Assembly (NCBI GenBank): GCA_963770565.1
Contig: CAVYQE010000001.1
Coordinates: 416,001 to 480,000 of the forward strand
Origin: an uncultured Actinomycetota bacterium
GTDB taxonomy: Bacteria > Actinomycetota > Actinomycetes > JAFAQI01
Length of the DNA stretch: 64,000 nucleotides
Reading direction: 5' to 3'
Positions 45,757 to 63,450 of this stretch are shown here, piece after piece. Below the pieces are notes generated by a model. It did no database searches, was not told where the DNA came from, and saw only the letters and a list, made by a program, of their open reading frames with translations. How positions within the stretch are numbered: position 1 is the stretch's first letter; every line of letters begins with the position of its first letter. The translations under genes and the position numbers were made by a program.

Positions 45757-46575
45757 GTGACCGCCGACGACCTCGCCGCCCACTTCCTCGCCCTGCACGG
45801 CGGTCCGACCCCGTTGCTCATCCCCAATCCGTGGGACGCGGGCTCGGCCCGGGTTCTCGCCTCGCTCGGATTCCAGGCGTTGGCGACGACCAGCAGCGGG
45901 TTCGCGGCCACGCTCGGGCGGCTCGACGGGTCGGTGAGCCGCGACGAGGCGCTCGCCCACGCGGCCGCGATCGCGGCGGCCACCGATCTGCCGGTCTCGG
46001 CCGACCTGGAGAACTGCTTCGCGGACGAGCCGGCGGGAGTCGCCGAGACCGTGACCCTGGCCGCAAGCACTGGCCTGGCCGGGTGCTCGATCGAGGACTT
46101 CACGGGTGATCAGTCCGACCCGATCTACGACCTCGGGCCGGCCACCGAGCGGGTGGCGGCCGCCGCTGAGGCCGCGCACGGCGGCCCGACCCGGCTGGTG
46201 CTCACTGCGCGGTCCGAGAACTACCTGCACGGACGCGCCGACCTCGCCGACACGATCGCTCGGCTGCAGGCCTACTCGGCGGCCGGCGCCGACGTGCTCT
46301 ATGCGCCGGGGCTGACCAGGCTCGAGGACATCCGGGAGGTGGTCGACTCGGTCGACCGGCCGGTCAACGTGCTCGCGTTGCCGAGCGGTCCCGACGTCGG
46401 GGCGCTGGCCACGTTCGGCGTACGCCGGATCTCGGTCGGCGGCGCATTCGCGTACGCCGCACTCGCTGGGCTGGTCGATGCCGGGCGGGAGCTCATCGAG
46501 CGCGGCACGCTCGGGTTCTGGGACCGTGCCGCGGTCGGCGGAGCGGCTGCCCGGGCGGCCTTCGCGAGCACCTGA
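45757..46575 (+). CDS. Isocitrate lyase/PEP mutase family protein
   Basis: PNPWDAGSA, ATTS, SADLEN, SIED. Confidence 0.88.
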   Translation: MTADDLAAHFLALHGGPTPLLIPNPWDAGSARVLASLGFQALATTSSGFAATLGRLDGSVSRDEALAHAAAIAAATDLPVSADLENCFADEPAGVAETVTLAASTGLAGCSIEDFTGDQSDPIYDLGPATERVAAAAEAAHGGPTRLVLTARSENYLHGRADLADTIARLQAYSAAGADVLYAPGLTRLEDIREVVDSVDRPVNVLALPSGPDVGALATFGVRRISVGGAFAYAALAGLVDAGRELIERGTLGFWDRAAVGGAAARAAFAST

Positions 46576-48397: not shown

Positions 48398-49330
48398 ATG
48401 ACGCACGACGGGATTCCCGAGCTGGTGTATTCGGACGGCACGGTTGCCGACGACGACCTGCTCGATGCGCTCGACGATCTCGAGATCGACGTACTCATCG
48501 ACGACGACGGCGAGCCGACGTTGCTCGATGCACAAGGCCGGCCGGTCGAGACCTGGCGCGAGGGCTACCCCTATGACCGGCGGATGACCCGGTTCGACTA
48601 CGAGCGCACGAAGCGGCTGCTCCAGATCGAGCTGCTGAAGCTCCAGTCCTGGGTCAAGGCGGACGGCCGGCGGCTGGTCCTGCTGTTCGAGGGTCGGGAC
48701 GCGGCCGGCAAGGGCGGCACGATCCGGCGCTACACCGAGCATCTGAACCCGCGCGGCGCCCGCGTGGTGGCGCTCGAGAAACCGACCGACGTCGAGCGTG
48801 GCCAGTGGTATTTCCAGCGGTACGTCGAGCAGCTGCCCGCGGCCGGGGAGATCGTGTTCTTCGACCGCTCCTGGTACAACCGGGCCGGCGTCGAGCGGGT
48901 GATGGGGTTCTGCAGCGACGAGGAGTACCACCGGTTCATGGTCCAGGCGCCGCCGTTCGAGCGGATGCTGGTCGAGGACGGCATCGACCTGGTCAAGTTC
49001 TGGTTCTCGGTGACCCGCAGCGAGCAGCGCACCCGCTTCACGCTGCGCCGGGTCGACCCGGTCAAGCAGTGGAAGCTCAGCCCGATGGACCTCGCATCCC
49101 TGGATAAATGGGATGAATACACCGCGGCGAAGGAGCAGATGTTCCGCTCGACGCACACCTCGTTCGCTCCGTGGATGGTGGTGAAGAGCAACGACAAGCG
49201 GCGTGGGCGGATCGAGTCGATGCGCTACGTGCTGTCGCGGTTCGACTATCCGGGCAAGAACCGGGCCGTGGTGGGAGCGCCTGATCCGGTCCTCGTGGGC
49301 TCTCCCGACGCGGTGCTCGAGGACCGCTAG
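48398..49330 (+). CDS. ppk2: Polyphosphate kinase 2 (class I)
   Basis: FEGRDAAGKGG, DRSWYNRAGVE, KQWKLSPMD. Confidence 0.95.
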   Translation: MTHDGIPELVYSDGTVADDDLLDALDDLEIDVLIDDDGEPTLLDAQGRPVETWREGYPYDRRMTRFDYERTKRLLQIELLKLQSWVKADGRRLVLLFEGRDAAGKGGTIRRYTEHLNPRGARVVALEKPTDVERGQWYFQRYVEQLPAAGEIVFFDRSWYNRAGVERVMGFCSDEEYHRFMVQAPPFERMLVEDGIDLVKFWFSVTRSEQRTRFTLRRVDPVKQWKLSPMDLASLDKWDEYTAAKEQMFRSTHTSFAPWMVVKSNDKRRGRIESMRYVLSRFDYPGKNRAVVGAPDPVLVGSPDAVLEDR

Positions 49331-49479: not shown

Positions 49480-49941
49480 GTGAAGTCGCCGCGGTTTCTG
49501 TTCGTCGTGGGCGTCGGTCGCGGCCCGGAGGCGCACCCGGTCTGGCCGGACGTGCACCAGAACTTCGAGGGTGAGGTCGACGCCGACGAGTCGTGGGTCG
49601 CGTGGCGCCTGACCGGCGCCAACCATCGCGAGCTCGGCCGCAGTTCGCGGGTGTTTCCGGACCTGACCACAGCCCGAGAGGACGCGATCGCTCTGCACGA
49701 GCGGATCGACCAGGCCCAGGCGCACATCCTCACCGTGCCGCACACCGGCACCTGGGGGTGGCGGCTGCGGCTCGACGACGTGCCGGTCGCGACTTCGAGC
49801 CGGGGATACGCCCGGCACCGCGAGTGCACCTACAACGTGGCGGCCTTCATGGCCGCCGCTGCCGTGGCGGAGCTCTCCGAAGGAGAGTTTCCGCGGGCCT
49901 GGAAGTTTCACATCGAGCCGATAGTTGGACCCGCGCTATGA
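49480..49941 (+). CDS. YegP/DUF1508-like tandem-repeat protein
   Basis: [14 protein letters not shown] and WGWRL...VATSSRGY repeats; GGAGGAG RBS. Confidence 0.6.
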
Positions 49942-49958
49942 CGACTGAGGGAGTATCG

Positions 49959-50798
49959 ATGACCACGGTTGCGCCACCGGTAATTGACATCGCGGTGGCC
50001 GAGTTGCCGCAGCGCAATCCCACCGGTGCCCATCTGGACGCGCAGCGTGTTTCGGCGTGGTTCGGCACGAACAAGGTGCTTGAACGGGTTTCGTTGTCAA
50101 TGCCGCCGGGCGTGGTGACGGCGCTCATCGGTCCGTCCGGGTGTGGAAAGTCGACCTTCCTCCGAATCCTCAACCGGATGCACGAGTCGGTGGTGGGCGC
50201 GAAGCTCGCCGGTGAGGTCCTGCTCAACGGTTCGGACATCTACGCTCCAAGCGCTCGGACGACCGAGACCAGGCGGCGGATCGGGATGGTCTTCCAGAAG
50301 CCCAACCCGTTCCCGACCATGTCGATCGCAGAGAACGTCACGGCCGGGCTCAGGCTCACCGGTACCAAGATCGCTAGATCTGATCGAACCGCTCTGGTCG
50401 AGGACTGCCTGCAACGCGGCGGGTTGTGGGGCGAGGTGAAGGACCGGCTCGACTCGCCTGGTGGCGCGTTGTCGGGCGGCCAGCAACAGCGGCTGTGCAT
50501 TGCCCGCTCGCTGGCGGTTAACCCCGACGTGCTCCTGATGGACGAGCCATGCTCGGCGCTCGATCCGACCTCGACCCGACGGATCGAGGAGACCATCGCC
50601 GTCCTGCGCGAGCAGGTCACGATCGTCATCGTCACGCACAACATGCAGCAGGCCGCGCGGGTTTCCCAGCAGTGTGCGTTCTTTCTGGCCGAGCAGGGGA
50701 CCCCGGGCCAGATCGTCGAGGCCGGGTCAACCGAGGACATCTTTGAACGGCCCAAGGACTCGCGCACCGCGGACTACGTCCACGGCCGCTTCGGCTGA
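49959..50798 (+). CDS. pstB: Phosphate ABC transporter ATP-binding protein
   Basis: [40 protein letters not shown], ends GRFG. Confidence 0.95.
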
Positions 50799-50941: not shown

Positions 50942-52072
50942 CTACTTCTTGATCTTCGTCGCAGCGGTTGTCGCAGTTCCGCTGGCATAGCCGGTCTTGT
51001 GCGCAGTCACCTTGCAGGTGAGCTTCTTGCCCTTGTCCGAGCTCGGTACCTTGAGCGAGGACTTGGTCGCATGCTTGATCTTCTTGCCGTTCACGTACCA
51101 CTGGTAGCTGTACGACGAAGCGGCCGGCGACCACTTACCCTTCGAGGCCTTCTCCGTCTTGCCGACCGTGTGCGGTCCGGAGAGCGTGGGCTTCGTCGTG
51201 GCGTGAAGTGCCTTGCCGATCGCGACCTTCTTCGACGTACTGGTGCCCGGCGTCGACCCGCCGCCGTTCGTCCCGGTTGCTCGGCAGGCGAGCGACTTCT
51301 TGTATTGGGATCCCGGAATCGTGTACGTGCTCTTGGTCGCGCCGGAGATCGCCTTCGTACTCGCCAGCCACTGGTAGCTGACCGACGTGGCTCCGGTGAA
51401 GGAAGCGTGGCAGGTCACCTTGTCGCCGACCCGGACGGTGCCGGAGAGCGTGACCTTGCCGTTGAGGGTCGGCGCAGCGCCCGGGTAGACGACCGTCCAG
51501 GTGTTGGCACCGGCGTCCACCGCGATGTCTACGCGGTCGTAGGCGCTGGTGTCAGGTTCCTGGCCCGGCCCCAGGGTGAAGATTCGCATCTCGTAAAGGT
51601 TCTGGTAGCCCGAATCGGTGAGGTTGTTCGGGTACTCACCGATGTAGTCGTCCATCGTCAGGTCTTCGGCCGTTCCAACTACGAACGGGTTGCCGCTGGC
51701 AGTTACTGCGGCTGGTACGCCGCCCGGCGCCGGGTCGTACTGGCCTGCGCTCAGAAGGTCGCCACTCCACGTCTGTGGGTTCGCACCGCCCTCCTGGGGT
51801 GTGTAGGCGTAGAGGTCGGCGTGGTTGTCACCGGAACGGCCCGCGTGACCGGCCACGGCGTACGCGGCAAAGGGCGCGCTGTCCAGTGTGCCGCCCGTGA
51901 TCACGTGTCCGCTGGAGTCGTAGAAGGTGATCGAGCCGATCGCGTTCGGGTCCGGCTCCCAGCCCGGCGTGACCGTAGCGGCTGACGTCCCTCCCATCGT
52001 GGTGAGCAGCGTGCCGACCGAGATCGCGAGTGCGCCGATCCCGGCGACCAGTCGCTGTCGCGTGAGCATCAT
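50942..52072 (-). CDS. Secreted protein: WEPDPNA domain plus two Lys-rich Ig-like repeats
   Basis: Signal peptide, GGAGG RBS, SYQW...I.GAT...CxxT repeats. Confidence 0.8.
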   Translation of the reverse strand: MMLTRQRLVAGIGALAISVGTLLTTMGGTSAATVTPGWEPDPNAIGSITFYDSSGHVITGGTLDSAPFAAYAVAGHAGRSGDNHADLYAYTPQEGGANPQTWSGDLLSAGQYDPAPGGVPAAVTASGNPFVVGTAEDLTMDDYIGEYPNNLTDSGYQNLYEMRIFTLGPGQEPDTSAYDRVDIAVDAGANTWTVVYPGAAPTLNGKVTLSGTVRVGDKVTCHASFTGATSVSYQWLASTKAISGATKSTYTIPGSQYKKSLACRATGTNGGGSTPGTSTSKKVAIGKALHATTKPTLSGPHTVGKTEKASKGKWSPAASSYSYQWYVNGKKIKHATKSSLKVPSSDKGKKLTCKVTAHKTGYASGTATTAATKIKK

Positions 52073-52181
52073 CGTTAGCCTCCGTCTCAGTGGCACTGGT
52101 CCCAAGACCCGCCTGACTTTCCCTGTCACCCTAGGTCGCACAAGCCCTTCGGTGATCGGCGCGAAGGACGCGTCGGCGGTT

Positions 52182-52431: not shown

Positions 52432-53451
52432 ATGACCACTGACACCCTTCGCCTCGCCCCAGGGCCTGAGTCCGAACCTGACGTCCCGCGCGCAATCAGC
52501 GGTGGGCATACGAGGCCGGACCAGGTCTTCAACGGCGTGGCTCGCGCGTTCGGGCTGTTCGTTCTGGTGCTGATGGCGGCGATCGGACTCTTTCTCGGGC
52601 TGCAGATGATCCCGGTGTTGAGGCATTACGGCTTCAACTTCTTCACCCGGGCGCAATGGGACCCGGACTTGAATCAGGTCGGTGTCAAGGCGGCAGTTTG
52701 GGGAACCATCGAGATCGCCTTTATCGCCCTCGTGGTCGGCTTCCCGCTGGCATTGGGCACCGCCCTGTTCATCACAGAGCTTGCTCCCCGGCGGCTCAGA
52801 TCGTTCCTCGTGTCAATGGTCGATCTGATGGCTGCTGTGCCCAGCATCATCTACGGCTTGTGGGGCTTGAACCTGCTCGAACCGCATGTGATTCACCTGT
52901 CCCGGTGGCTAGCGGAGTACTTCGGTTGGTTCCCGCTCTTTCACGTGGACACGGACACCCACGCTGCCGTTTGGCAGACGTCAAAGTTCACCTCGTCCGC
53001 ATTCATTGCAGGGCTCGCGGTCTCCATGATGGTGACACCGCTGACCTGCGCGATCATGCGTGGCGTGTTCGCGCAGGCACCACTCGGTGAGCGCGAGGCG
53101 GCGCTCGCGCTTGGCGCGACCAAATGGGGGGTGATCCGCTCGGTCGTGCTCCCCTTCGGTCGTGGCGGCATGATCGGCGGCACGATGCTCGGGCTCGGGC
53201 GAGCGTTGGGCGAGACAGTTGCGGTCCTTTTGATCATGGCGCAGTCGTTCAAGATCAGCCTGCATGCGCTGCAGAACGGTTACATCTCGATCTCCGCGCT
53301 CATCGCTAACTTCTTCAACTCCGCAACCTCGCTGCAACTGAAGGCATTGCTGGCCGCCGGATTCGTGCTGTTCGTGATGACCCTGATCGTCAACACGATC
53401 GCGGGAATCATCGTGAACCGCAGCCGCAGCGGCGCGGCGACGGAGATCTGA
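52432..53451 (+). CDS. pstC: Phosphate ABC permease PstC
   Basis: AAVPSIIYGLWG, EAALALGATKW, LGLGRALGET. Confidence 0.93.
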   Translation: MTTDTLRLAPGPESEPDVPRAISGGHTRPDQVFNGVARAFGLFVLVLMAAIGLFLGLQMIPVLRHYGFNFFTRAQWDPDLNQVGVKAAVWGTIEIAFIALVVGFPLALGTALFITELAPRRLRSFLVSMVDLMAAVPSIIYGLWGLNLLEPHVIHLSRWLAEYFGWFPLFHVDTDTHAAVWQTSKFTSSAFIAGLAVSMMVTPLTCAIMRGVFAQAPLGEREAALALGATKWGVIRSVVLPFGRGGMIGGTMLGLGRALGETVAVLLIMAQSFKISLHALQNGYISISALIANFFNSATSLQLKALLAAGFVLFVMTLIVNTIAGIIVNRSRSGAATEI

Positions 53452-53452
53452 A

Positions 53453-54556
53453 ATGGCCGCGATCACTTCAGCCGTGGAATCCGTCGACGCCAGCGCCGCG
53501 CCGGCTCCGGAGCCCGACCAGCCACGACGACTGGGCACCACCACCGTCGACGATGTGATGTCGCTGCTTGGCTCGATCGTGGGCGCGTTCGGGCTGGTGT
53601 GGATCGTTCTCTACCGCCTGCTCCCGCTGTCCGGAACGCTCGGTTTCGTCGTCTGCTGGTATGTCGTCTTCCTCGCGCTGTACACAGCGGTCACGGCGAT
53701 GTCGCACCCGAAGCCGATCGTCGTCGATCGGCTGGCGCGGAGCTTGATCTGCGGTGTTGCCGGAATCGTCGCCCTGGCGCTGGCGTCGACGATCCTCGAC
53801 ACCTTCCTTCGTGGCCGGCATGCCCTGGTGCACTGGAACTTCTACTCCAAGGACGCCAACGGCGTATCGCCGACGGCACCGTTGAACCAAGGCGGGATCC
53901 TGCACGCGATCGCCGGAACGTTCGTCGAGCTCGGCATCGCGACGGCAATTTCCCTTCCGTTGGGGATCGGCGCCGCGATCTACATGAGTGAGGTAGGCGG
54001 CCGACTGGCTCGCACGGTGCGCACGGTCGTCGAGGCGATGACCGCCCTTCCGGACCTGCTGGCTGGTCTGTTCATCTATACGACCGTGATCGTCGCGCTG
54101 AGATTCGAGAAGAGCGGCCTGACGGCCGCGCTTGCCCTTGCCATCACGATGCTCCCGATCATCGCCCGCTCGGCTGAGCTTCAGCTGCGGGTCGTGCCTG
54201 GCGGGTTGCGGGAGGCCGGGCTTGCCCTCGGCGCGCCGAAATGGCGCATGGTGCTGCGGGTCGTGCTGCCGACCGCGGCCACCGGCCTCGCGACCGCCCT
54301 CATCCTCGCCTTCGCTCGCGCGGTCGGCGAGACCGCTCCCGTGCTGATCGCGTCGGGGGCCACGCCGTTCCTTCGCTTCAATCCGACCGGTGAGCCGATG
54401 ATGTCGCTCCCGCTATACATCTTCACCGAGGTACGAAGCGGCCAGCCATTGGAGATCGAGCGCGCGTACGGAGCCGCCTGCGTGTTGCTGGCAATTGTGC
54501 TCGTGTTGTTCATGGCCCTACGGGTCCTGGCCCGACGGAAAGGCACTGTTCGGTGA
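53453..54556 (+). CDS. pstA: Phosphate ABC permease PstA
   Basis: LRVVPGGLREAGLALGA, ARAVGETAP, SLPLYIF. Confidence 0.92.
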   Translation: MAAITSAVESVDASAAPAPEPDQPRRLGTTTVDDVMSLLGSIVGAFGLVWIVLYRLLPLSGTLGFVVCWYVVFLALYTAVTAMSHPKPIVVDRLARSLICGVAGIVALALASTILDTFLRGRHALVHWNFYSKDANGVSPTAPLNQGGILHAIAGTFVELGIATAISLPLGIGAAIYMSEVGGRLARTVRTVVEAMTALPDLLAGLFIYTTVIVALRFEKSGLTAALALAITMLPIIARSAELQLRVVPGGLREAGLALGAPKWRMVLRVVLPTAATGLATALILAFARAVGETAPVLIASGATPFLRFNPTGEPMMSLPLYIFTEVRSGQPLEIERAYGAACVLLAIVLVLFMALRVLARRKGTVR

Positions 54557-56190
54557 ACGCTCGCCGGCTTCGTCCGACTCGGCTCGCCGTCCTTGCGGCG
54601 GCGATGCTGATGTCGGTCTTCTGGACCATGCCCACGCCCGCGTTCGCCTCGGGCACCACGCAGATCAACGGCTCGGGCTCGACCTGGGCCTACAACGCGG
54701 TCAACGCCTGGATCGGCGAGGTGTCTGCCCAGGGCCTTCGGGTGACGTTCAACCCGAACGGCTCGGCAGCGGGCCGCCAGGATTTCGCGAACCGAGCGGT
54801 CGACTACGCCGTCTCCGACATCGGCTTCCAGGGAAAGGACCCGTTGACCGGCACCAACGACACCTCGAGCGGGCGAGCGTTCGCGTACGTCCCACTGGTG
54901 GCGGGTGGCACGTCGTTTCCGTATCACCTGACGGTTGCGGGACAGCTGGTGCGCAACCTCAGGTTGTCCGGTGCGACCTTGGCAGGAATCTTCACGGGTT
55001 CGATCACCAACTGGGACGCGCCGCAGATCAGCAAAGACAACAACGGGAGGAAGTTCCCCTCGATTCCGATCGTGCCGCTCGTGCACTCGGAGGGCTCTGG
55101 GACGAGCTACCAGTTCTCCGCGTATCTGGCTCAGGATTTCTCCAGCGTCTGGTCCTCCTTCGCGGGCAAGGACAAGCCGACCGAGTATTGGCCGAGCGAC
55201 AAGGCCAACGAGATCGCGCTGAACGGGTCGGACCAGTTGATGAACTACCTCGCATCGCAATCGGGCCAGGGAGCGATCGGCTACGACGAATACTCGTATG
55301 CGATCGCAAAGAACATTCCGGTCGCCAAGATCGAAAACCAGGCGGGCTACTTCACACTCCCCACCCAGTACAACGTCGCGGTGGCGCTCACCCAGGCGAT
55401 CATCAACTACAACCAGAACTCGCCGGACTACCTGCTCGAGAGTCTCAAGGACGTATACGGGTACTCGGATAAGCGCACCTATCCGCTGTCGTCGTACTCG
55501 TACGGCATCATCCCTACGGCGGCGAACGACGGGACGATGAGCACTCCCAAGCGGCAGGCCCTCGCCGACTTCCTCTACACCTCGATCTGTCAAGGTCAAG
55601 GTGCGATCGGCCAGATCGGCTATTCAGCACTTCCGATCAACCTGGTTCAGGCTGCGTTCAAGCAAGTCGGCCTGCTCAAGAAGGTCGACTCGCAAGTCTC
55701 GCTCACCAACCTGAACGTGACGACCTGCGGCAACCCCACGTTCGTGGCCGGGAAGCCCAAGGAAAACCACCTGGCCCAGATCGCGCCCGAGCCGCCGTTG
55801 TGCGACGAGGTCGGGCATGGCCCCTGCACCACCAGCAACGACACCACCGGCCCGACCCCAACGACGGGCGGGAAGAGCTCGTCGCCGACCGGCTCGAAGA
55901 AGGGGAAAGGTGGCCACCACTCGAGCAGCCCGAGTCCCGGGACAAGCCCGAGTCCCGGGACCAGCCCGAGTCCCGGGACGAGTACTGGTGGAGGCATCGA
56001 TCCAGTGACCGGGCTGCGCAGTAGCGACCCGAACGGCACCTCGGGCACAGGGACGGTCGAGACCGAGCCGGTCACGCTCGGCACCGGTGCGTCGTCCGGC
56101 ACCGCGCTTGCGGTGCTTGCCGCTGTGCTCTTCCTCGCGGCGATCGTTGTCCCTCCGACCTTGGCTCGACGCTGGCTCCGCAGGAAGTGA
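54553..56190 (+). CDS. pstS: PstS-type phosphate-binding protein with C-terminal membrane anchor
   Basis: GSGST, GSAAG, VSD, SGTS, YPLSSYSY; signal peptide ending AFA; S/P/T linker, TM and RRWLRRK. Confidence 0.85.
   Translation: MNARRLRPTRLAVLAAAMLMSVFWTMPTPAFASGTTQINGSGSTWAYNAVNAWIGEVSAQGLRVTFNPNGSAAGRQDFANRAVDYAVSDIGFQGKDPLTGTNDTSSGRAFAYVPLVAGGTSFPYHLTVAGQLVRNLRLSGATLAGIFTGSITNWDAPQISKDNNGRKFPSIPIVPLVHSEGSGTSYQFSAYLAQDFSSVWSSFAGKDKPTEYWPSDKANEIALNGSDQLMNYLASQSGQGAIGYDEYSYAIAKNIPVAKIENQAGYFTLPTQYNVAVALTQAIINYNQNSPDYLLESLKDVYGYSDKRTYPLSSYSYGIIPTAANDGTMSTPKRQALADFLYTSICQGQGAIGQIGYSALPINLVQAAFKQVGLLKKVDSQVSLTNLNVTTCGNPTFVAGKPKENHLAQIAPEPPLCDEVGHGPCTTSNDTTGPTPTTGGKSSSPTGSKKGKGGHHSSSPSPGTSPSPGTSPSPGTSTGGGIDPVTGLRSSDPNGTSGTGTVETEPVTLGTGASSGTALAVLAAVLFLAAIVVPPTLARRWLRRK
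55927..55980 (+). repeat. 18-bp tandem repeat x3 (SPSPGT) in the PstS stalk
   Basis: AGCCCGAGTCCCGGGAC(A/C/G) x3. Confidence 0.9.
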
Positions 56191-59000
56191 TGGCGCGAGT
56201 GCGATCAACGAGCCCGACCCGGCACCCTCGCGCGTACATCGGCGCGGCAACCCTTGCGGTGGTGCTGGCCGGTCCGCTTGCCGTGGCATCCGGATCGCCG
56301 GCGGCAGAGGGCATTTCCGACCACCCGGTGACAGTGAGCAAGACGGTCACCCGCACGAACATCCTGCCTGATGGCCAGCAGCAGACTGTCGTCAAGAAGA
56401 AGGTGACGGTCTCAGTCAGCGCAACGACGGGGCTTCGGACGCTTCAGCAGATCAACGTGTCTTGGAAGGGCGCATATCCGACCAACTACATAGACCCGGA
56501 CCCGAACTCAGCGAATGCCTCGTCGTATCAGGAGTATCCGGTTGTTGTCCTTGAATGCCGTGGCGTGGACTCGACGAAGGTTCCGCCGAAGGACCGGCTG
56601 AGCCAGCAAAACTGTTGGACCCAGTACAACATCGAGCGAAATGCTTCTGCGCCGGGCACCGAGTTCCCGCCGTGGCGAATGGACCGGTACGCCGGCAATC
56701 TCGGCCTGTTCCCCCACAAACCGAAGAAGCTGCCAACCGGTTGTTCGCCGTACAGCTTTGGTGAAGCCGATTATTTCGAGCCGCTGAGGGCGCTGAACGG
56801 GAGGAGCTACTACGGCGGGCCGACGCTCGCCTGTAGCACGTTGTCTCCGGAGCAGTCGGGATTCACGGCCGACTTCCCGGACAACACGACCTTCGGCGTG
56901 ACCGGTGCGGGTGGTGCGGGTCGGGCAAAGTTCGTGGTGTGGAGCAGCGAGACGAACGAGACGCTGGGCTGCTCGGCGACTGTGAAGTGCTCACTCGTTG
57001 TGATTCCGATCGTCGGGATCAGCTGTGATGAGCGGTCAAAGTCCGCGGATGAGACCCCGCAGGACGTCGACCATTGCGACTATGCCGACACCGAGCATGG
57101 CCTGCTCGAGAATGCCGCTGGTGAGCTCAGCAGCCCTGGCCAGATGGCGCTGGAGTCTGTGACCGGCGAGCTGTGGTGGTCGGCGTCGAACTGGCGCAAC
57201 CGGATCTCGATCCCGCTGTCATTCGCGCTGCCCTCTGATTACTGCGCCGTCGTGAACAAGCGTGCATCAGTGTTCGTGTACGGATCGGAACTGATGAACG
57301 AAGCTGCGCAGCAGTGGAGCCCCGAATTCTGCACCGACTCAAAGCGGACGCCGTTCACCCAGATCGCGCAGGCTGAACCCGCGGCTGTGAACGAGCTCAA
57401 TGAGCGTTCGATCGATGCTGCGTACGAGACCTATCCTCCCAAACCCGCCGGTAGAGCCGGGCCACCGGTCGTGAACGCACCGGTGGCGGTCAGCGGCTTC
57501 GCAATATCGACAGTGGTCGACGATGCACAGCACAACGAGGACTTTGATGTCAAGCTCGACCCTCGGCTGCTCGCCAAACTCCTGACCGAGTCCTATCCGG
57601 ACCTTCCCGACATCGCCCAGAACGACGGTATGGCGAACAACCCACTCAACATCACGCTCGACCCTGAGTTTCGGGCGCTCAACCCCGACGTGCCCGAGGA
57701 GACCGCAAGTTCGGGCTTCCAGATCATCACCGATGCCCGTGCCACGCTGATGGCACTGTCCTCGGACTCCGATGTGACGCACGCGTTGACCGCATACATC
57801 GCGGCCGATCCGGCGGCAATGGCCTTCATCGACGGCAAGCCCGATCCGTGGGGCATGGTCGTCAATCCCAGCTACAAGGGGACGAAGCTGCCGACTGACT
57901 TCTGGCCGCTGAAGGACACTTATATTCCATATGCCGTCTACAACAGTGACCAGACGTCCTGCTTCGCCCAGGCTCGCTATCAGGTGCCGTACCTTCCGCT
58001 GGTCGCCTCGCCGTTGCTGACCTTGTCGAGCATCGCGTACGACCTCGAGTTCTCGTTGCCGAACTCGGTGACCTCCTGTTTCGTCAGTGTGGGAACCCCC
58101 GAGGCGGACAAGCTGATCACCGGCCCCCGACAAGCTCCCGGTGAAAGATTCCTGCTCGGTATCACATCTTTGTCTGAAGCCAAGCGCTACGACCTTGACA
58201 CGGCCGAACTCGAATCCCAATCGACGGTGTCGCCGACGACGGCATTCACGAGTGCAGAGGGGAGCACGTTCGTCCACCCGACTAACGCCTCGTTGACCGC
58301 CGCGACGAAGGCGCTCGTGCCCGACAAGGCGGACAACAGTTGGCGTCTTGACTACGACAAGCTGCGCACGAGTCCCTCGGAGGCAAACGCCTACCCCGGG
58401 ACCATGCTGGTGTCGATGAGCGTTCCGACGGCGGGGCTTGCCGCCGCGGACGCCAAGGCGTACTCACAAATGCTCGCGTTTTCGGCCGGGCTGGGCCAAA
58501 CGCCCGGGCCAGACTTCGGCCAACTTGCCGCGGGATACCTGCCGATGACGACCGCGAACGGTCTCGGCGCATTAGCGAGCTACACGCAGCGGGCCGCCGC
58601 GGTAGTCGCTGCGCAGCAATGTGAAGTCCCCAACGTGGACAACTCGGCTCAGGCCCGCTCCACGTGGAGCGGATGCCCACCGCCGCCACCACCTCCGTCG
58701 CACTCACCCTCGCCAACCCCTGACTCGAGCTCGACATCGCAGCCATCGTCCGGACAGACCTCGATTCCCGCGGTGAACAGTCCATCGGCGAGCGCTTCGC
58801 CGAGCTCACCGGGAGGTAGTCCGACGGTTGCCCCGTCCCCGTCGCCGACTCCAGTCGCCGAGGCCACGCCGATCTCGCCAGTGGGATCGTGGGTGTATTT
58901 CCTGCCGGCGGTGGTTTTCGCTGGGCTGCTCTGCGGCGGCGCCGTGGGCGGCACCTGGCTGCTTCGGCGTTATCGCGGTAGACGCGGGTCGGCTCCGTGA
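56187..59000 (+). CDS. Large secreted Cys-rich protein with degenerate PstS-like domain and C-terminal TM
   Basis: Signal peptide; VYGSELMNEAAQQW, APVAVSG, AYPGTM, GYLPM; poly-Pro/Ser linker, TM, basic tail. Confidence 0.75.
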   Translation: MMARVRSTSPTRHPRAYIGAATLAVVLAGPLAVASGSPAAEGISDHPVTVSKTVTRTNILPDGQQQTVVKKKVTVSVSATTGLRTLQQINVSWKGAYPTNYIDPDPNSANASSYQEYPVVVLECRGVDSTKVPPKDRLSQQNCWTQYNIERNASAPGTEFPPWRMDRYAGNLGLFPHKPKKLPTGCSPYSFGEADYFEPLRALNGRSYYGGPTLACSTLSPEQSGFTADFPDNTTFGVTGAGGAGRAKFVVWSSETNETLGCSATVKCSLVVIPIVGISCDERSKSADETPQDVDHCDYADTEHGLLENAAGELSSPGQMALESVTGELWWSASNWRNRISIPLSFALPSDYCAVVNKRASVFVYGSELMNEAAQQWSPEFCTDSKRTPFTQIAQAEPAAVNELNERSIDAAYETYPPKPAGRAGPPVVNAPVAVSGFAISTVVDDAQHNEDFDVKLDPRLLAKLLTESYPDLPDIAQNDGMANNPLNITLDPEFRALNPDVPEETASSGFQIITDARATLMALSSDSDVTHALTAYIAADPAAMAFIDGKPDPWGMVVNPSYKGTKLPTDFWPLKDTYIPYAVYNSDQTSCFAQARYQVPYLPLVASPLLTLSSIAYDLEFSLPNSVTSCFVSVGTPEADKLITGPRQAPGERFLLGITSLSEAKRYDLDTAELESQSTVSPTTAFTSAEGSTFVHPTNASLTAATKALVPDKADNSWRLDYDKLRTSPSEANAYPGTMLVSMSVPTAGLAAADAKAYSQMLAFSAGLGQTPGPDFGQLAAGYLPMTTANGLGALASYTQRAAAVVAAQQCEVPNVDNSAQARSTWSGCPPPPPPPSHSPSPTPDSSSTSQPSSGQTSIPAVNSPSASASPSSPGGSPTVAPSPSPTPVAEATPISPVGSWVYFLPAVVFAGLLCGGAVGGTWLLRRYRGRRGSAP

Positions 59001-59929
59001 GCGCTGGTGTCCTCGACGATCGGGCGCAGCCGGATGCGACGTCAGGTGTGACGTCCGGCCGTCGCCGCCCGCGGGCGCCGCAGGCACCCCTGTCCACTCC
59101 GGCAGCGATCTCGGTCGCGGCTGCGGCGATCCTCTTTGCGGTCGCGATCTGGGCCATTCTCTACGCGTTCGTGCTTAGTGGCGTGCAGGAGCACACCGCC
59201 CAACGCGGCCTGTACGCGAAGCTTCGATTGGAACTGGCGAACGAGGTGGCGCCGGTCGGGGGGCAGGTCGCCGACGGCGCCCCGATCGCCCTCATCAACG
59301 TGCCTGCGCTGGACCTGAAGGACAACGTGGTGGTCGAGGGGACCACCACGACGGACCTGCAGAACGGGCCCGGTCACCAGGTCAACACGGTGTTTCCGGG
59401 CCAGGCGGGCGTGTCGGTGATCTACGGCAAGAGCGCCACCTTCGGCGCTCCGTTCCGGAGCGTGTCCCATCTTCGATCCGGCGACAAGGTCATTGCCACC
59501 ACAGGGCAGGGCACCTTCACCTACACGGTCAACGACGTGCGCCGGGCCGGCGATCCACTGCCGCAGCCGCTGGCGGCCGGTCAGGGCCGACTGACCTTAG
59601 TCGCCGCGGTCGGCCACGGTTGGCGCGCTGGTTGGGCGCCTTCGCAGATCGTCTACATCGACGCCACGTTGAACGGCAAAGGCAAGGCCTCGCCGTCGGG
59701 TGGCCCGGCCCTGCAGCCCGCCAGCCAACTTCCCATGTCGCGTGACGACTCGGCGCTGACCCCATTGGTGCTGTGGTTGGAGTTGCTGGTCGTTACTTCT
59801 GTCGCTTTTGTGTGGGCCCGAGGTCGCTGGGGCGGTTGGCAGGTGTGGCTGGTGGGAACTCCTGCACTTCTTGCAGTCGTTTGGGTTGTGACGGAGACGG
59901 CCGCGCGACTATTGCCCAATCTGCTCTGA
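58997..59929 (+). CDS. Sortase-fold membrane protein lacking the catalytic His/Cys
   Basis: VVEGT...L..GPGH...T.FPGQ.G...G...FGAPF...L..GD...LTLV; no Cys in 310 aa. Confidence 0.82.
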   Translation: MSAGVLDDRAQPDATSGVTSGRRRPRAPQAPLSTPAAISVAAAAILFAVAIWAILYAFVLSGVQEHTAQRGLYAKLRLELANEVAPVGGQVADGAPIALINVPALDLKDNVVVEGTTTTDLQNGPGHQVNTVFPGQAGVSVIYGKSATFGAPFRSVSHLRSGDKVIATTGQGTFTYTVNDVRRAGDPLPQPLAAGQGRLTLVAAVGHGWRAGWAPSQIVYIDATLNGKGKASPSGGPALQPASQLPMSRDDSALTPLVLWLELLVVTSVAFVWARGRWGGWQVWLVGTPALLAVVWVVTETAARLLPNLL

Positions 59930-59949
59930 GGCAAACACTGCCGGGCATC

Positions 59950-60004
59950 GTTCGTCTGCTGTTCAGCATCTAGCGACCTTCTAGCCCGATGACCTCCCTA
60001 GGTT
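59950..60004 (+). promoter_or_regulatory. PHO-box-like repeats plus -10 TAGGTT
   Basis: GTTCGTCTGCT GTTCAGCATCT; TAGGTT at 59999-60004. Confidence 0.55.
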
Positions 60005-60049
60005 TGGCGGGTCGGAGATGGACTCCGTAAAACCTCCCGAGGAGGGTGC

Positions 60050-61345
60050 ATGTTCAAAAGGGCCAAAACCGCCCTGGCGATCGGCGCCGTGGGATCGACC
60101 GCCGCGCTGCTCGTTACGATGCAGCCGGCGTTCGCTGACCCCCAGGCGCGGCCAGGTGACGCGGTCGTTGTGGGTTCTGACACTGTGCAGAACGCTGCCG
60201 ACTTCCTGTTCAGCGGCGATGTCAGTGGCGACCCGGCATACAACACCGGCAAGACCAACGAGATCTACAACATCACCGCGACCGGCGACAACAACGGCCG
60301 AGCTCTCTATGACCCCAATGGCAACCTGCTGTACGGCGTCGGCACCACCTCAGTCGTGATGCGGGCCGGCACCAAGCCGGTCGAGCGGGTCGATGGCTCA
60401 GGGGCTGGCATCACCGCCTTGACCGCCGACTCCCTTGGCGGCGCGGGCTACAACGGGCTGGTTAACGGATCGTTCACCTTCTCGCGCTCCTCGCGGCTGC
60501 CAAAGGCTGCGGAGCAGTCGGCGTGTGCAGCAATCGCGGGCTGCGGCGGGCTGCACGTCTTCCAGCTCGCCACGGACAACCTCGAAATGGCGGTCAGCAG
60601 CGTCTCCACGAACGCGTTCCCGATGTCGACCACGCAGCTGGCGTATGTCTACAGCCACTGTGACGGCTCTCAGGGCGTCGAGTTTTCCGAGGTCCCCAAT
60701 GCTCCTGGTGGGGCTTCGAACAACCACATCATCCCAACAATCCCGCAGGCCGGCTCGGGCACGCGCGGCTCGTTCGAGTCCGACATCGGGGTTTCGGACG
60801 CCACGATCACGTCAACCCCCTGCCTTCGGATCAGCGAAGAGCACGACCCGACCGGCGTTACCCTCGCGACGCAACCGGGATCTAGCACGCTCGACCCGGC
60901 GGACGCGATCGAGCCGTTCTCAGTGGGCAAGATCAAGCTCATCCAGAGCGGGTACTACGGCAACAGCGGTCAGCCGGCGTCGAACTTCCAGATCACGCTG
61001 ATGACGGGTTGCACAACCGGCGACCAGACACCGAACTGCCCGACGGCCCACCAGATCCTGGCCAGCGACGGCAATCCGGTGTACGACAACACCCGAGGCA
61101 TGTACCTGCTGGCGCGTGACTTCGACCTCAACCTGACGCCTGGTGTGGGCGTATGCGCCTCAGGTGGAGCCGATGCAAGCTACGGCCAGTGCAAGCCGTC
61201 GCAGCCCGGTGGCACCAAGAACTGGGTGAACGATGTGTTGAAGGGCGCGACGTCCTGGATTGCTCGGGCGGCAAACGCCCCGGACATTGCAGCGGCCGGC
61301 TTCACCGCGAACTACGCGGACCTCGGCGACGCCTCGTCCGGCTGA
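60050..61345 (+). CDS. Secreted PstS-like (PBP2-fold) protein without anchor
   Basis: Signal peptide AFA-DP, VGSDT, GSGAG, SRSSR, PQAGSGTR, EEHD; GAGGAGG RBS. Confidence 0.75.
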   Translation: MFKRAKTALAIGAVGSTAALLVTMQPAFADPQARPGDAVVVGSDTVQNAADFLFSGDVSGDPAYNTGKTNEIYNITATGDNNGRALYDPNGNLLYGVGTTSVVMRAGTKPVERVDGSGAGITALTADSLGGAGYNGLVNGSFTFSRSSRLPKAAEQSACAAIAGCGGLHVFQLATDNLEMAVSSVSTNAFPMSTTQLAYVYSHCDGSQGVEFSEVPNAPGGASNNHIIPTIPQAGSGTRGSFESDIGVSDATITSTPCLRISEEHDPTGVTLATQPGSSTLDPADAIEPFSVGKIKLIQSGYYGNSGQPASNFQITLMTGCTTGDQTPNCPTAHQILASDGNPVYDNTRGMYLLARDFDLNLTPGVGVCASGGADASYGQCKPSQPGGTKNWVNDVLKGATSWIARAANAPDIAAAGFTANYADLGDASSG

Positions 61346-61375: not shown

Positions 61376-61419
61376 CCTCTCCCCGGTGCCACGGCTTGGC
61401 AGCGGGCACCGGGGAGAGG
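61376..61419 (+). terminator. Stem-loop after the PstS-like gene
   Basis: CCTCTCCCCGGTGCC...GGCACCGGGGAGAGG 15-bp stem. Confidence 0.7.
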
Positions 61420-61518
61420 ACTTCGAAGGGGACCGGACCAGGGCCCAGCCCCTCGTCCATCATGCGCCCTTTCGGATTGATCGTCCAAGTCGAATCGACT
61501 CAAACAGGGAGACAATCC

Positions 61519-63378
61519 GTGAGAATCAGTCTTAAGCGTGCGTCCACCGGGGTGGGAGCCCTGGCGCTCGCGGCCGGCCTTGTGCTTGCCTCGAGCGGGG
61601 TGGCGTCCGCATCCACCAACGTCGGGTGGGAGCCCGACCCGAACGCGATCGGCACGATCACGCTGCTCGACTCGAACGGCGTGCCGATCACGGGCGGCAG
61701 TCTCGACTCGCACCCGTTTGCGGCGTACGCAGTCGCCTCGCACCAGGGACGTAGCGGGATCGACAGCAAGGGCCAACTCTACGCATACACCCCACAGGTC
61801 GGCACCAACCCGCAGACCTGGAGCGGCGACCTGCTCAGCGCCGGCACCTATAGCCCCGCGCCCGCAGGGACCCCGGCGGACGTGTCGAGTACGGGTCTTC
61901 CATTCGTCACCGGTGGATCCGCCGACTTCTCCTTCAACGACTACATCAGTGAGTACCCGAACACGCTGTCGACGACCGGCTACGTGAACCTCTACCAGTT
62001 GAGGTTCTACACCGCCGGCTCGCAGGCGCCGGACACCACCGCGTACGACGTCGTGGACATCCAGGTCAACACCTCTGCGGACACCTGGCAGGTCGTCTAC
62101 CCGGGTGCGGCGAACGGCAACTACCCGGACGCCACGGATGCCACCACGACGACGCTTACCACTACGCCGAGCAGCCCGGACACGTCCAGCAACAACCCGG
62201 AGACGGTAACCCTGCACGCGTCCGTCAGTGCCGCCACGGCGGTTCCGTCCGGCTACACCGGCGGGATCGGCACGGTGTCGTTCTTCGACGGGACCACGCC
62301 GGTCGGCTCACCGCAACTGGTCAGCGGAACTGGCCCTTACACGGCCAGCGTCACCGACTCAGTGCCCAACCCGTCGTCGCACACGTTCACGGCGAAGTTC
62401 GCTCCGTATGTCGGCACCGGCCTGGCCGCCTCACAAGGGTCAGCACCGTTCCAGGTCGGCGCTCCGGTTCCTGGCACCACCACGGCTCTCTCGGTGACCC
62501 CGGGTCAGTTTGCGGGTGACCAGAACAGCTACACCGCCACGGTTACGTACCCGGCGGGGACGAACTGCACCGGTACCGTCAACTTCTTCGACGGCACGAC
62601 ACTTGTTGCAGGGCCGATCAGCCCGAAGCCGGGTACTCCGAACGAGTTCGACGCGACGAACACCTTCAACGCGCCGGACTCGCACTCAATTACTGCGGCG
62701 TTCACCCCGGCCGACCCGTCCGTTTGCGGTGGGTCGACCTCGTCGCCGTCGACGTTCTCGCAGGGCGCAAACCCGAACGGTCCTTGTGCGACGTCGAACG
62801 GCGGTCAGTGCACCGATGTCCAGACGATCACGACCACGGTGCCCCAGGGCATCTTGGTCATCTCCACGCCCTACACGGCCAGCAACCCGCTGAACCTGGG
62901 GACGATGTCACTGGACAGCACCGGCACGATGTTCACTGCGCACGCTACGTTCGGCGCGAGCTCGACGGACGCGACGCAGGACATCTACGTCACCGACACC
63001 CGTTCGGGTGACCTCCCGTGGACGGCTCAGGCGCAGGCCTCGAACCTGTCCGACGGTGGGTCGAACGTCAGCTCGCAGATCAGCGGCGAGAACGTCGGGC
63101 TGTCCGGTCTCACGGAGGTTCCGGTCACGGGTAACGGGTTCGACGGTACGGCGACGAACTTCACCACCTACAACAACTTCGCCGCCAGCCCGGCCGTTGC
63201 TCCGACCGACACAGGTACCGCCGGTCTCGGGAACGCTGCGCATGACATCGCTCAGGCGCAGCACGGTACTGGTTCGATCGGTCTCACCGGGACGCTCACT
63301 GTGAACGCCCCGAGCTCCACCGAGCCCGGTACGTTCACCGGCACGGTTACCTTCACGCTGGTCGGCAGCCTGGTTTAG
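61519..63378 (+). CDS. Secreted protein: WEPDPNA domain, two Big_3-like Ig domains, C-terminal WxL-like domain
   Basis: TTTTL...GTVSFFDGTT...HTFTAKF repeats; VTDTRSGDLPWT, ENVGLS, PSSTEPGTFTGTVTFTL. Confidence 0.78.
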   Translation: MRISLKRASTGVGALALAAGLVLASSGVASASTNVGWEPDPNAIGTITLLDSNGVPITGGSLDSHPFAAYAVASHQGRSGIDSKGQLYAYTPQVGTNPQTWSGDLLSAGTYSPAPAGTPADVSSTGLPFVTGGSADFSFNDYISEYPNTLSTTGYVNLYQLRFYTAGSQAPDTTAYDVVDIQVNTSADTWQVVYPGAANGNYPDATDATTTTLTTTPSSPDTSSNNPETVTLHASVSAATAVPSGYTGGIGTVSFFDGTTPVGSPQLVSGTGPYTASVTDSVPNPSSHTFTAKFAPYVGTGLAASQGSAPFQVGAPVPGTTTALSVTPGQFAGDQNSYTATVTYPAGTNCTGTVNFFDGTTLVAGPISPKPGTPNEFDATNTFNAPDSHSITAAFTPADPSVCGGSTSSPSTFSQGANPNGPCATSNGGQCTDVQTITTTVPQGILVISTPYTASNPLNLGTMSLDSTGTMFTAHATFGASSTDATQDIYVTDTRSGDLPWTAQAQASNLSDGGSNVSSQISGENVGLSGLTEVPVTGNGFDGTATNFTTYNNFAASPAVAPTDTGTAGLGNAAHDIAQAQHGTGSIGLTGTLTVNAPSSTEPGTFTGTVTFTLVGSLV

Positions 63379-63412
63379 GCCAGCGCGCTGACAAGCGTCG
63401 GCACAGCAGAAG

Positions 63413-63450
63413 GGTCGGGGCGGGCCGAAGCGGCCCGCCCCGACCTCTTT
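63413..63450 (+). terminator. Intrinsic terminator
   Basis: GGTCGGGGCGGGCCG-AAG-CGGCCCGCCCCGACC followed by TCTTT. Confidence 0.8.

Follow-up and report, generated by a model that had tools for sequence, protein, structure and literature searches.

Introduction

Sortases attach proteins to the cell walls of Gram-positive bacteria. The class E sortases, housekeeping enzymes of the LAXTG type whose solved representatives include S. avermitilis SrtE (5go5 and 5go6), S. coelicolor SrtE1 (5cuw) and T. fusca SrtE (9iok), combine an N-terminal transmembrane (TM) anchor with an eight-stranded barrel. Here, we describe a protein with the same anchor and barrel, encoded in a 64,000-nucleotide stretch of DNA (the window) from an uncultured Actinomycetota bacterium (class Actinomycetes; GenBank assembly GCA_963770565.1, contig CAVYQE010000001.1, positions 416,001 to 480,000, forward strand). 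The gene, an intact open reading frame (ORF) at 58997..59929 (+) with a GTG start and 310 codons for amino acids, lies in a cassette resembling the Pst phosphate importer, and its product is referred to below as the pseudo-sortase. All other window features are likewise on the + strand unless stated otherwise.

The pseudo-sortase shares with class E sortases the motifs VVEGT, GPGH, PGQxG and TTGQG, and its best NCBIfam family is class_E_sortase. Unlike these enzymes, it has all three catalytic residues, His, Cys and Arg, replaced, scores below the curated family cut-off, belongs to a separate clade, has a shorter and strongly conserved loop between strands 6 and 7 (AGDPLPxPL), carries two extra C-terminal TM helices ending in LPNLL, and is encoded in a Pst-like cassette rather than beside LAXTG substrates. 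Its best structural match, the class D sortase of C. perfringens (4d70), is a catalytic Cys transpeptidase that lacks the C-terminal helices.

The second system that invites comparison is the phosphate importer PstSCAB, known from the cryo-electron microscopy structure of the E. coli complex (9k3x) and from the M. tuberculosis binding proteins PstS-1 (1pc3) and PstS3 (4lvq). The cassette shares with it homologues of PstB, PstC and PstA, together with three PstS-fold proteins. It differs from canonical PstSCAB in being a divergent second copy with another gene order and the additional pseudo-sortase gene, and in the tethering of its binding proteins by C-terminal TM helices rather than a lipobox.

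Enzymes turned into membrane adaptors have a precedent in the iRhoms, protease-derived membrane pseudoenzymes that have lost the catalytic residues, keep the fold and substrate-type recognition, and serve as adaptors for client membrane proteins; as these proteins are eukaryotic and of an unrelated fold, they would provide an analogy only. Within sortase systems, the small TM protein SafA is reported to be a membrane partner that binds the actinobacterial housekeeping sortase (PMC9282373). SafA and the pseudo-sortase would be alike as actinobacterial membrane proteins engaged in non-catalytic binding within a sortase system; SafA binds a real sortase, whereas in the pseudo-sortase the sortase fold itself would be the non-catalytic partner. 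The pseudo-sortase family is apparently undescribed: full-text searches of the literature turned up neither a family of sortases devoid of Cys nor a sortase encoded in pst operons, and no such protein is included in the accessible part of the five-sortase inventory of Actinoplanes missouriensis (PMC13251363).

Loss of the catalytic residues across the family

The catalytic columns were read from an alignment to real class E sortases of related genomes, in which they appear as AGHR, LTLTSC and AAQRIV. In the window copy, the position of the catalytic His is occupied by K145 (YGK for AGH; 59429..59431), that of the Cys by A204 (TLVAA for TLxTC; 59606..59608) and that of the Arg by I218, within QIVY (59648..59650), and the 310 residues include no cysteine at all. 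A first-pass annotation, made from the sequence alone, had described the protein in just these terms, as an intact sortase-fold protein without a catalytic triad in which YGKS replaces AGHR, TLVAA replaces TLxTC and the downstream Arg is missing, and had suggested an alignment of homologues as the way to tell whether the loss is conserved or the copy merely decayed.

Of 8000 candidates scored in a word-indexed search, 833 passed E<=1e-3. The best 120 of these, which are 45-100% identical, measure 212-353 residues and are entered in their sources as 'sortase A' or 'class E sortase', were analysed. The His column of these proteins holds Lys in 29 and Arg in 91, and never His; none has Cys in the Cys column or Arg in the Arg column, and 71 of the 120 are entirely free of cysteine. 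When 1.84 billion cluster representatives were searched exhaustively with a profile, 9792 matched at E<=1e-3; 3939 of the matches reached E<=1e-10 and 645 reached E<=1e-30. The best 150 representatives, mutually no more than 50% identical, were used for column counts. Here, the His column holds Arg (140) or Lys (10), the Cys column Ala (99), Ser (32), Thr (6), Val (5), Gly (5), Leu (2) or Glu (1) and never Cys, and the Arg column retains Arg in three sequences. The family carries Lys or Arg in place of the catalytic His, chiefly Ala or Ser in place of the Cys, and a hydrophobic residue in place of the Arg. The loss of His and Cys is thus conserved in 120 of 120 homologues and 150 of 150 representatives, and close syntenic homologues with the His and Cys intact, which the first-pass annotation had named as the observation that would speak for simple decay, were not among them. 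Sequence and conservation together support its reading of the protein as probably non-catalytic.

Catalytic intermediates were also sought in syntenic clusters, where three candidates were examined and none proved to be one. The first (L061, on G239:C4 of a 1.7-Mb genome) is a very divergent Cys-less member that ends in FLPPVL and lies 2 kb from a pstC-pstA-pstB-PstS cluster. The second (L062, on G053:C6 of a 60%-complete genome) is a pseudo-sortase split over three frames within a complete cassette, and could be either a genuine pseudogene or an artefact of assembly. The third (L063) has no pst genes around it and is an ordinary class E sortase.

A sortase fold that lacks defining features of class E

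The Pfam profile Sortase (PF04203) matches the protein with 52.8 bits (cut-off 26.6), though only residues 100-183 align, against positions 1-84 of the 125 in the profile; the NCBIfam profile class_E_sortase (NF033747) covers residues 38-182 only and, at 68.7 bits, stays under its cut-off of 160. By sequence, the nearest solved relative is S. avermitilis SrtE (5go6, E 3.2e-12), which aligns to residues 93-179 only, and in this alignment YGKS again stands where the sortase has AGHR.

Structure prediction extends the match beyond these partial alignments. An AlphaFold2 (AF2) model of the pseudo-sortase was built on 40 homologues, with a mean predicted local distance difference test score (pLDDT) of 79.8 and a predicted template modelling score (pTM) of 0.70. 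The top Foldseek matches of this model are all sortases, led by 4d70 (TMt 0.77) and 5go5 (TMt 0.72). Superposition with VIA-align gave Z 17.9 against C. perfringens SrtD 4d70 (root-mean-square deviation 2.8 over 152 residues, 24% identity) and Z 15.2 against SrtE 5go5 (2.3 over 128 residues, 33% identity, model residues 91-228), so that model residues 66-228 are matched to sortases at Z 15-18; the range aligned to 5go5 takes in the strands that normally bear the Cys and the Arg. Judged by the model, the barrel is a complete sortase fold with the eight-stranded barrel of sortases. The class D/E sortase scaffold recognized in the first-pass annotation is borne out by these comparisons, which also dispose of the possibility, raised there, that the fold is not a sortase. 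At the same time, four features that define class E sortases, the His, the Cys, the Arg and a curated NCBIfam score above the cut-off, are absent from a protein that is built on the class E scaffold; the pseudo-sortase should not be filed as a sortase enzyme.

Selection, phylogeny and distribution

In comparison with the orthologue from the same genus (L014, 77% identity), the ratio of nonsynonymous to synonymous substitution rates (dN/dS) is 0.17 both for the whole protein and for the barrel and falls to 0.08 in the two C-terminal TM helices, the lowest of all segments; only this pair is quoted because distant pairs are near synonymous saturation (pS 0.55-0.80). Over the 150 representatives, conservation is highest in the region of the specificity loop and in the barrel, where the mean frequency of the top residue is 0.58. 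When 37 pseudo-sortases and 7 real class E sortases from one and the same group of genomes were placed in a maximum-likelihood tree, the two sets fell on opposite sides of a split with support 100/100; the family is, as far as these sequences go, monophyletic relative to the real class E enzymes of those genomes.

Of 251 genomes sampled evenly across the class, among them one unpublished genome (G040) that has no match, 59 contain matches at E<=1e-30, and in 55 of these the match reaches the C-terminal motif. A search for related loci with the single protein gave 2 loci only, both from metagenome-assembled genomes (MAGs) of uncultured Actinomycetes. Carriers with names include a Mycobacteriales MAG, a Jatrophihabitans sp., Tenggerimyces flavus (Nocardioidaceae) and a Micromonosporaceae MAG. 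These data describe a large, conserved actinobacterial family that is under purifying selection and not in decay.

Architecture of the pseudo-sortase

From the N- to the C-terminus, the protein consists of a basic N-terminal segment, TM1 with a stalk helix, the sortase beta-barrel, a linker, a TM2-TM3 hairpin and the terminal LLPNLL. TM1 (approximately residues 34-60; 59096..59176) continues as the stalk helix to residue 81, the whole being one AF2 helix (34-81), and is preceded by RRRPR, which, by the positive-inside rule, would place the N-terminus in the cytoplasm. The barrel spans residues 96-226 (59282..59674; AF2 strands 96-225) and is the most conserved segment. The hairpin (residues 251-309; 59747..59923) comprises AF2 helices 251-278 and 280-309, and its W284, P289 and W296 are invariant columns in the homologue alignment (A1). 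The same alignment identifies LLPNLL (59909..59926), at the outer end of TM3, as a family signature with four invariant residues, L305, P307, N308 and L309. Of the 38 pseudo-sortase frames, with the window copy counted, 36 terminate in an LPN-type motif, as do 121 of the 150 representatives, many of the remaining 29 being fragments. LLPNLL might be a self-ligand that folds back into the groove; the AF2 model puts it at the end of helix 280-309.

The GTG start of the gene overlaps the TGA stop of the upstream 937-codon gene as GTGA, and the two genes are therefore translationally coupled. The N-terminal TM, the two C-terminal TMs ending in LLPNLL, the intact frame and the coupling had all been noted in the first-pass annotation, and the model and the gene overlap agree with it on each of these points. 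Among the sequencing runs that contain 56187-61345, no RNA runs are listed; the DNA runs listed are soil metagenomes from 2 studies.

The pseudo-sortase gene belongs to a second Pst-like cassette

The operon runs from pstC (52432) to a strong hairpin at 63412-63446, with pstB and a divergent gene for a 399-residue immunoglobulin (Ig)-like protein just upstream. The transporter genes of the cassette encode a PstB-like ATP-binding cassette (ABC) ATPase (49593..50798; Pfam ABC_tran, 115.9 bits), whose true start may lie later, near residue 126, a PstC-like permease (52432..53451; BPD_transp_1, 42% identity to the canonical pstC on contig C2) and a PstA-like permease (53453..54556; BPD_transp_1). 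They are followed by the genes of a PstS-like binding protein of 545 residues (54553..56190; PBP_like_2, 109 bits), the 937-residue protein (56187..59000), the pseudo-sortase and a secreted protein of 431 residues that resembles a periplasmic binding protein (PBP) (60050..61345), whose match to the PstS family is weak (TIGR02136, 26.1 bits, far below the cut-off). With one ABC ATPase and two BPD_transp_1 permeases of PstC/PstA type, the cassette has the makeup of a PstSCAB-type transporter. The genome's own canonical pstSCAB lies on contig C2; its pstCAB genes share 42-58% identity with those of the cassette, and its PstS has a lipobox and no C-terminal TM helix.

Thirty-seven related loci were compared, of which 17 belong to the family itself or its surroundings and 20 to different families of the class. 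A pstB gene is present in 32 of them and a pst transporter gene of any kind in 33. The giant PstS-fold gene (the counterpart of the 937-codon gene) likewise occurs in 33, the PstS-like gene in 29, the PBP-like gene in 18 and the gene for the 660-residue Ig-like protein that closes the window operon in 17; the 4 loci without a pst gene (L014, L017, L022 and L029) all end at contig edges. Gene order varies by lineage: pstB often directly adjoins the pseudo-sortase gene, also in distant loci, and the giant PstS-fold gene is its commonest immediate upstream neighbour. This shuffling of the order between lineages speaks for a linkage that is functional and not just inherited.

Several relatives combine two complete paralogous cassettes with one real class E sortase. 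Two full cassettes occur in each of G001, G003, G004, G006, G012 and G017, and their pseudo-sortase copies form two clades in the tree. The genome of the window (assembly 94.9% complete) has one cassette only, and no real sortase was detected in this assembly by PF04203 or by tblastn with the SrtE proteins of relatives. Relatives from the same genus do have a class E sortase, and the sortase of this genome either falls in the missing 5% of the assembly or has been lost. A single ORF of the genome, ending near position 758858 (+) of contig C2, combines a strict L[PA]xTG (LPFTG) with a hydrophobic stretch and a basic tail behind it.

The neighbouring PstS-fold proteins have sortase-substrate-like tails

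The PstS-like protein has a signal peptide and, towards its C-terminus, a linker of approximately 100 residues rich in Pro, Ser, Thr and Gly, a TM helix and a basic tail. It scores 165.5 bits against TIGR00975 (cut-off 205) and passes the cut-off of PBP_like_2; the anion-binding motifs of PstS are mostly kept, with R, H or Q at the Arg position. Its larger neighbour, the 937-residue protein, has no match in Pfam or NCBIfam and none in the PDB as a single sequence. A profile of 28 orthologues (A5) matched M. tuberculosis PstS-1 (1pc3) in the PDB with E 1.7e-9, and the AF2 model (pLDDT 76.7, pTM 0.76) matched PstS3 (4lvq) in Foldseek with TMt 0.79, all 31 matches at E<=1e-3 being phosphate-binding or PstS/DING-type proteins. 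On the strength of the profile and model matches, the 937-residue protein has the PstS fold. A Cys-rich N-terminal extension precedes this fold, which is again followed by a linker rich in Pro and Ser, a C-terminal TM helix and a basic tail. Together with the PBP-like protein, the cassette carries three PstS-type proteins. Six cysteines of the N-terminal extension (C124, C143, C262, C268, C353 and C382) are invariant over the 28 orthologues, which suggests three disulfides in an extracytoplasmic domain without a fold match of its own.

A C-terminal TM helix with basic residues, preceded by a long linker rich in Pro, Ser, Thr and Gly, is present in 27 of 30 PstS-like frames and 31 of 32 frames of the giant protein. 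The tails have the three-part architecture of sortase substrates without the L[PA]xTG signal. The window tails hold VTLGTG (54553-56190) and TPISP (56187-59000), as read in the first-pass annotation, and neither contains a canonical LPxTG or LAxTG. Three conserved motifs stand out in otherwise low-complexity tail sequence. The first, [IV]DPxTG[QE], is represented in the window by IDPVTG (56002..56019), an LPXTG-like linker motif that lies 29 residues before the TM helix of the PstS-like protein; counted as [DN]PxTG, it occurs in 17 of 27 PstS-like tails, 19-83 residues before the helix, whereas shuffled tails gave 0.5 on average and never more than 5 in 2000 shuffles. The second, xP[VT]x[LV], lies approximately 12 residues before the same TM helix, and the third is a nearly invariant Thr in LGxT-like strings of the giant protein tail. 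The PstS-like TM helix itself has an invariant Pro near its cytoplasmic end, usually within (L/V)PP, and often a Glu at mid-helix.

Glycosylation of PstS occurs in Streptomyces. In the window PstS-like protein, a further copy of DPxTG (QGKDPLTGTNDT) is found in the globular part, approximately 450 residues from the C-terminus, and like the linker copy it is conserved in orthologues; the motif may therefore mean something else, and DPxTG could serve as a pseudo-sortase ligand, be glycosylated or play a structural part.

Fusions and a predicted contact

Fusions were sought among longer proteins that match the pseudo-sortase. A fusion of PstA with the pseudo-sortase, 765 residues long with BPD_transp_1 at 174-365 and Sortase at 559-661, was recovered as 4 distinct full-length sequences from JGI, Logan and ENA. 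The giant PstS-fold protein is fused to the pseudo-sortase in P0121 and P0172, both of which keep the TM helix of the giant protein and the basic patch before TM1, so that the junction is topologically consistent. A third candidate of this kind, P0122 (Marmoricola sp.), was not counted, its junction looking like a frameshifted linker.

The first-pass annotation had proposed structure prediction with the C-terminal peptides of the two upstream proteins. Complex prediction of the pseudo-sortase with the 90-residue tail of the PstS-like protein (54553-56190) gave a score of 0.33 (0.33, 0.45 and 0.31 in the individual runs), compared with 0.02 for the best of 3 controls; contacts agree between runs by at least 67%, and the pLDDT of the partner is at least 56. 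Of 157 solved complexes, 116 reach the mark applied, as do 2 of 215 mismatched pairs. A pass at a score of 0.60 or less is weak, since that range accounts for only 18 of the 157 solved complexes and for both passing mismatches; these benchmark counts hold only roughly here, custom alignments having been used. The prediction thus lends weak support to a contact between the pseudo-sortase and the PstS tail.

Proposed role and alternatives

The first-pass annotation had suggested a scaffold, chaperone or docking subunit in place of a transpeptidase. We infer a role of this kind from the constant operon membership, the fusions and the weakly supported complex prediction, with all of which a scaffold or docking subunit is consistent; the docking idea takes concrete shape from the neighbours, whose identity as PstS-fold binding proteins in a second transporter of Pst type had escaped the first-pass annotation. 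The reading that we favour, and to which we give somewhat better than even odds, is that the pseudo-sortase is a non-catalytic membrane adaptor of the Pst-like cassette, with TM helices that pack against membrane partners and a barrel that holds a tail peptide. On this model, the protein would no longer cut anything. Its conserved TM helices would pack against the PstA/PstC permease, the tail anchors or both, and the former substrate groove of the barrel would hold a juxtamembrane peptide of the tethered PstS-fold proteins, for which the PstS-like protein offers two candidates, IDPxTG and xPVxL, and the giant protein one, LGxT. As a result, binding proteins that span the wall would stay stably anchored in the membrane and close to the permease. 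A more specific version, which we regard as tentative and rather doubtful, is that the pseudo-sortase constitutes a new accessory subunit of ABC importers, a sortase-fold 'tail receptor' seated on PstA/PstC that grips, in the former LPXTG groove, a degenerate sorting motif (IDPxTG, xPVxL or LGxT) in the stalks of the TM-anchored PstS-fold proteins; covalent anchoring to the wall would then have been turned into non-covalent tethering and hand-over for the capture of phosphate through the thick wall of Actinobacteria.

Several observations weigh against the adaptor reading. A single frameshift or an error in assembly is enough to fuse neighbouring genes that overlap. Binding was assessed by a single prediction, with the PstS tail alone, that returned 'weak support' as its verdict and reported no interface, and covariation between TM2 of the pseudo-sortase and the tail helix of PstS was not seen by eye. 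Ten of the 27 PstS-like tails lack [DN]PxTG, and 12 of 30 frames hold a second DPxTG within the globular domain of PstS. Beside the pseudo-sortase genes of L024 and L061, which come from small or distant genomes, the giant PstS-fold gene was not found. Finally, Ser stands at the Cys position in 32 of the 150 representatives, and some members may have kept residual chemistry.

Among the alternatives, a transient biogenesis or retention factor, which would bind the tails in passing and either help to insert the C-terminal anchors after secretion or, as an 'anti-sortase', shield the tails from the housekeeping class E sortase and so leave the proteins tethered to the membrane, is unlikely, although it fares best. 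It would account for tails built like those of sortase substrates, with a linker, a TM helix and a basic end, for the coexistence in related genomes of a real class E sortase with one or two pseudo-sortases, and for the tentatively predicted contact with the PstS tail (0.33 against 0.02). A shield against a sortase is, however, hard to reconcile with a 94.9%-complete genome in which no real sortase was detected and the gene is nevertheless kept under selection, and the recurrent fusion to PstA argues for a permanent place at the permease rather than a passing role in biogenesis.

That same fusion, in 4 distinct sequences, is what recommends a regulatory or gating subunit of the permease, in which the TM helices would bind PstA/PstC and the barrel would sense a ligand in the wall, a phosphate polymer or the docked binding protein and modulate transport. 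The direct adjacency of pstB and the pseudo-sortase gene in many distant loci and the location of the strongest constraint in TM2-TM3 (dN/dS 0.08) fit such a subunit as well. Against it, no search suggested any ligand, and it is the giant PstS-fold gene that is the commonest upstream neighbour, coupled here and fused in P0172 and P0121; we consider regulation improbable.

We give little credence to the view that the protein is still an enzyme, with a non-canonical active site formed by K/R145, S140, H127, E114, D222 and R182 that cleaves or ligates the tails at motifs such as DPxTG or LGxT. These residues are conserved in at least 85% of the 150 representatives, the partners bear LPXTG-like motifs, and Ser is found at the Cys position in 32 of the 150. 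Against this, the Cys position is variable (A, S, T, V or G) and never Cys, and most of the conserved residues are Gly or Pro or belong to structural motifs that real class E sortases share (GPGH, PGQxG and TTGQG). No sortase is known to use a nucleophile other than Cys. A decaying sortase pseudogene or a chance ORF, to which the loss of all three catalytic residues and the frameshifted copy in L062 might point, is refuted by the conservation data, namely the intact frame, the dN/dS of 0.17, the same substitutions across 645 representative clusters at E<=1e-30 and a new two-helix C-terminal module with a conserved LPN motif, and carries next to no probability.

Implications

The database names 'class E sortase' and 'sortase A' are very probably wrong for several hundred sequence clusters. 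If the adaptor reading is true, no pseudoenzyme of sortase fold would have been given a role before the pseudo-sortase, which would show how a peptide-recognizing enzyme can be recycled as a docking module. It would also add an extra subunit and three unusual binding proteins to a well-studied type of transporter, Pst, in soil Actinomycetota, for which phosphate capture through the thick wall is an open mechanistic question, and would explain why many actinobacterial proteins have the architecture of a sorting signal without LPXTG. The contributions of the present analysis are the recognition of the giant protein as PstS-like in fold, the description of DPxTG, the tally of PstA fusions and the weakly supported complex.

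Other features of the locus

The divergent gene upstream of pstC (50942..52141, - strand) encodes a secreted Ig-like protein of 399 residues (Ig_2, 26.5 bits, below the cut-off of 27), and the last gene of the operon (61396..63378) a secreted Ig-like protein of 660 residues (Big_3_5, 32 bits, below the cut-off of 35.5). The two share an N-terminal domain of approximately 200 residues, with 54-63% identity over approximately 175-250 residues by tblastn in both directions. A third, weaker copy of this domain is found at C1:480577-481116, just beyond the window, and similar proteins flank the cassette in many relatives. The operon closes with a terminator-like hairpin of 16 pairs, 14 of them GC (63412..63446), identified in a scan for terminators and promoters that was not enriched overall (12 sites against 8.3 expected).

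Directly upstream of the cassette pstB lies a gene for polyphosphate kinase 2 (PPK2; 48398-49330, +, 330 bits), and a gene of the PEP_mutase family (45757-46575, +, 240 bits) lies 3 kb further upstream; these surroundings fit a phosphate-related role of the cassette. The first part of the pstB frame (49593-49970) encodes an N-terminal stretch of 125 residues rich in Arg and Pro ahead of the ABC domain. This stretch may be a real extension or the conserved DNA of another feature: it aligns over the full length in L016, L018 and L019 (query residues 1-401), and most other relatives start at residues 117-146.

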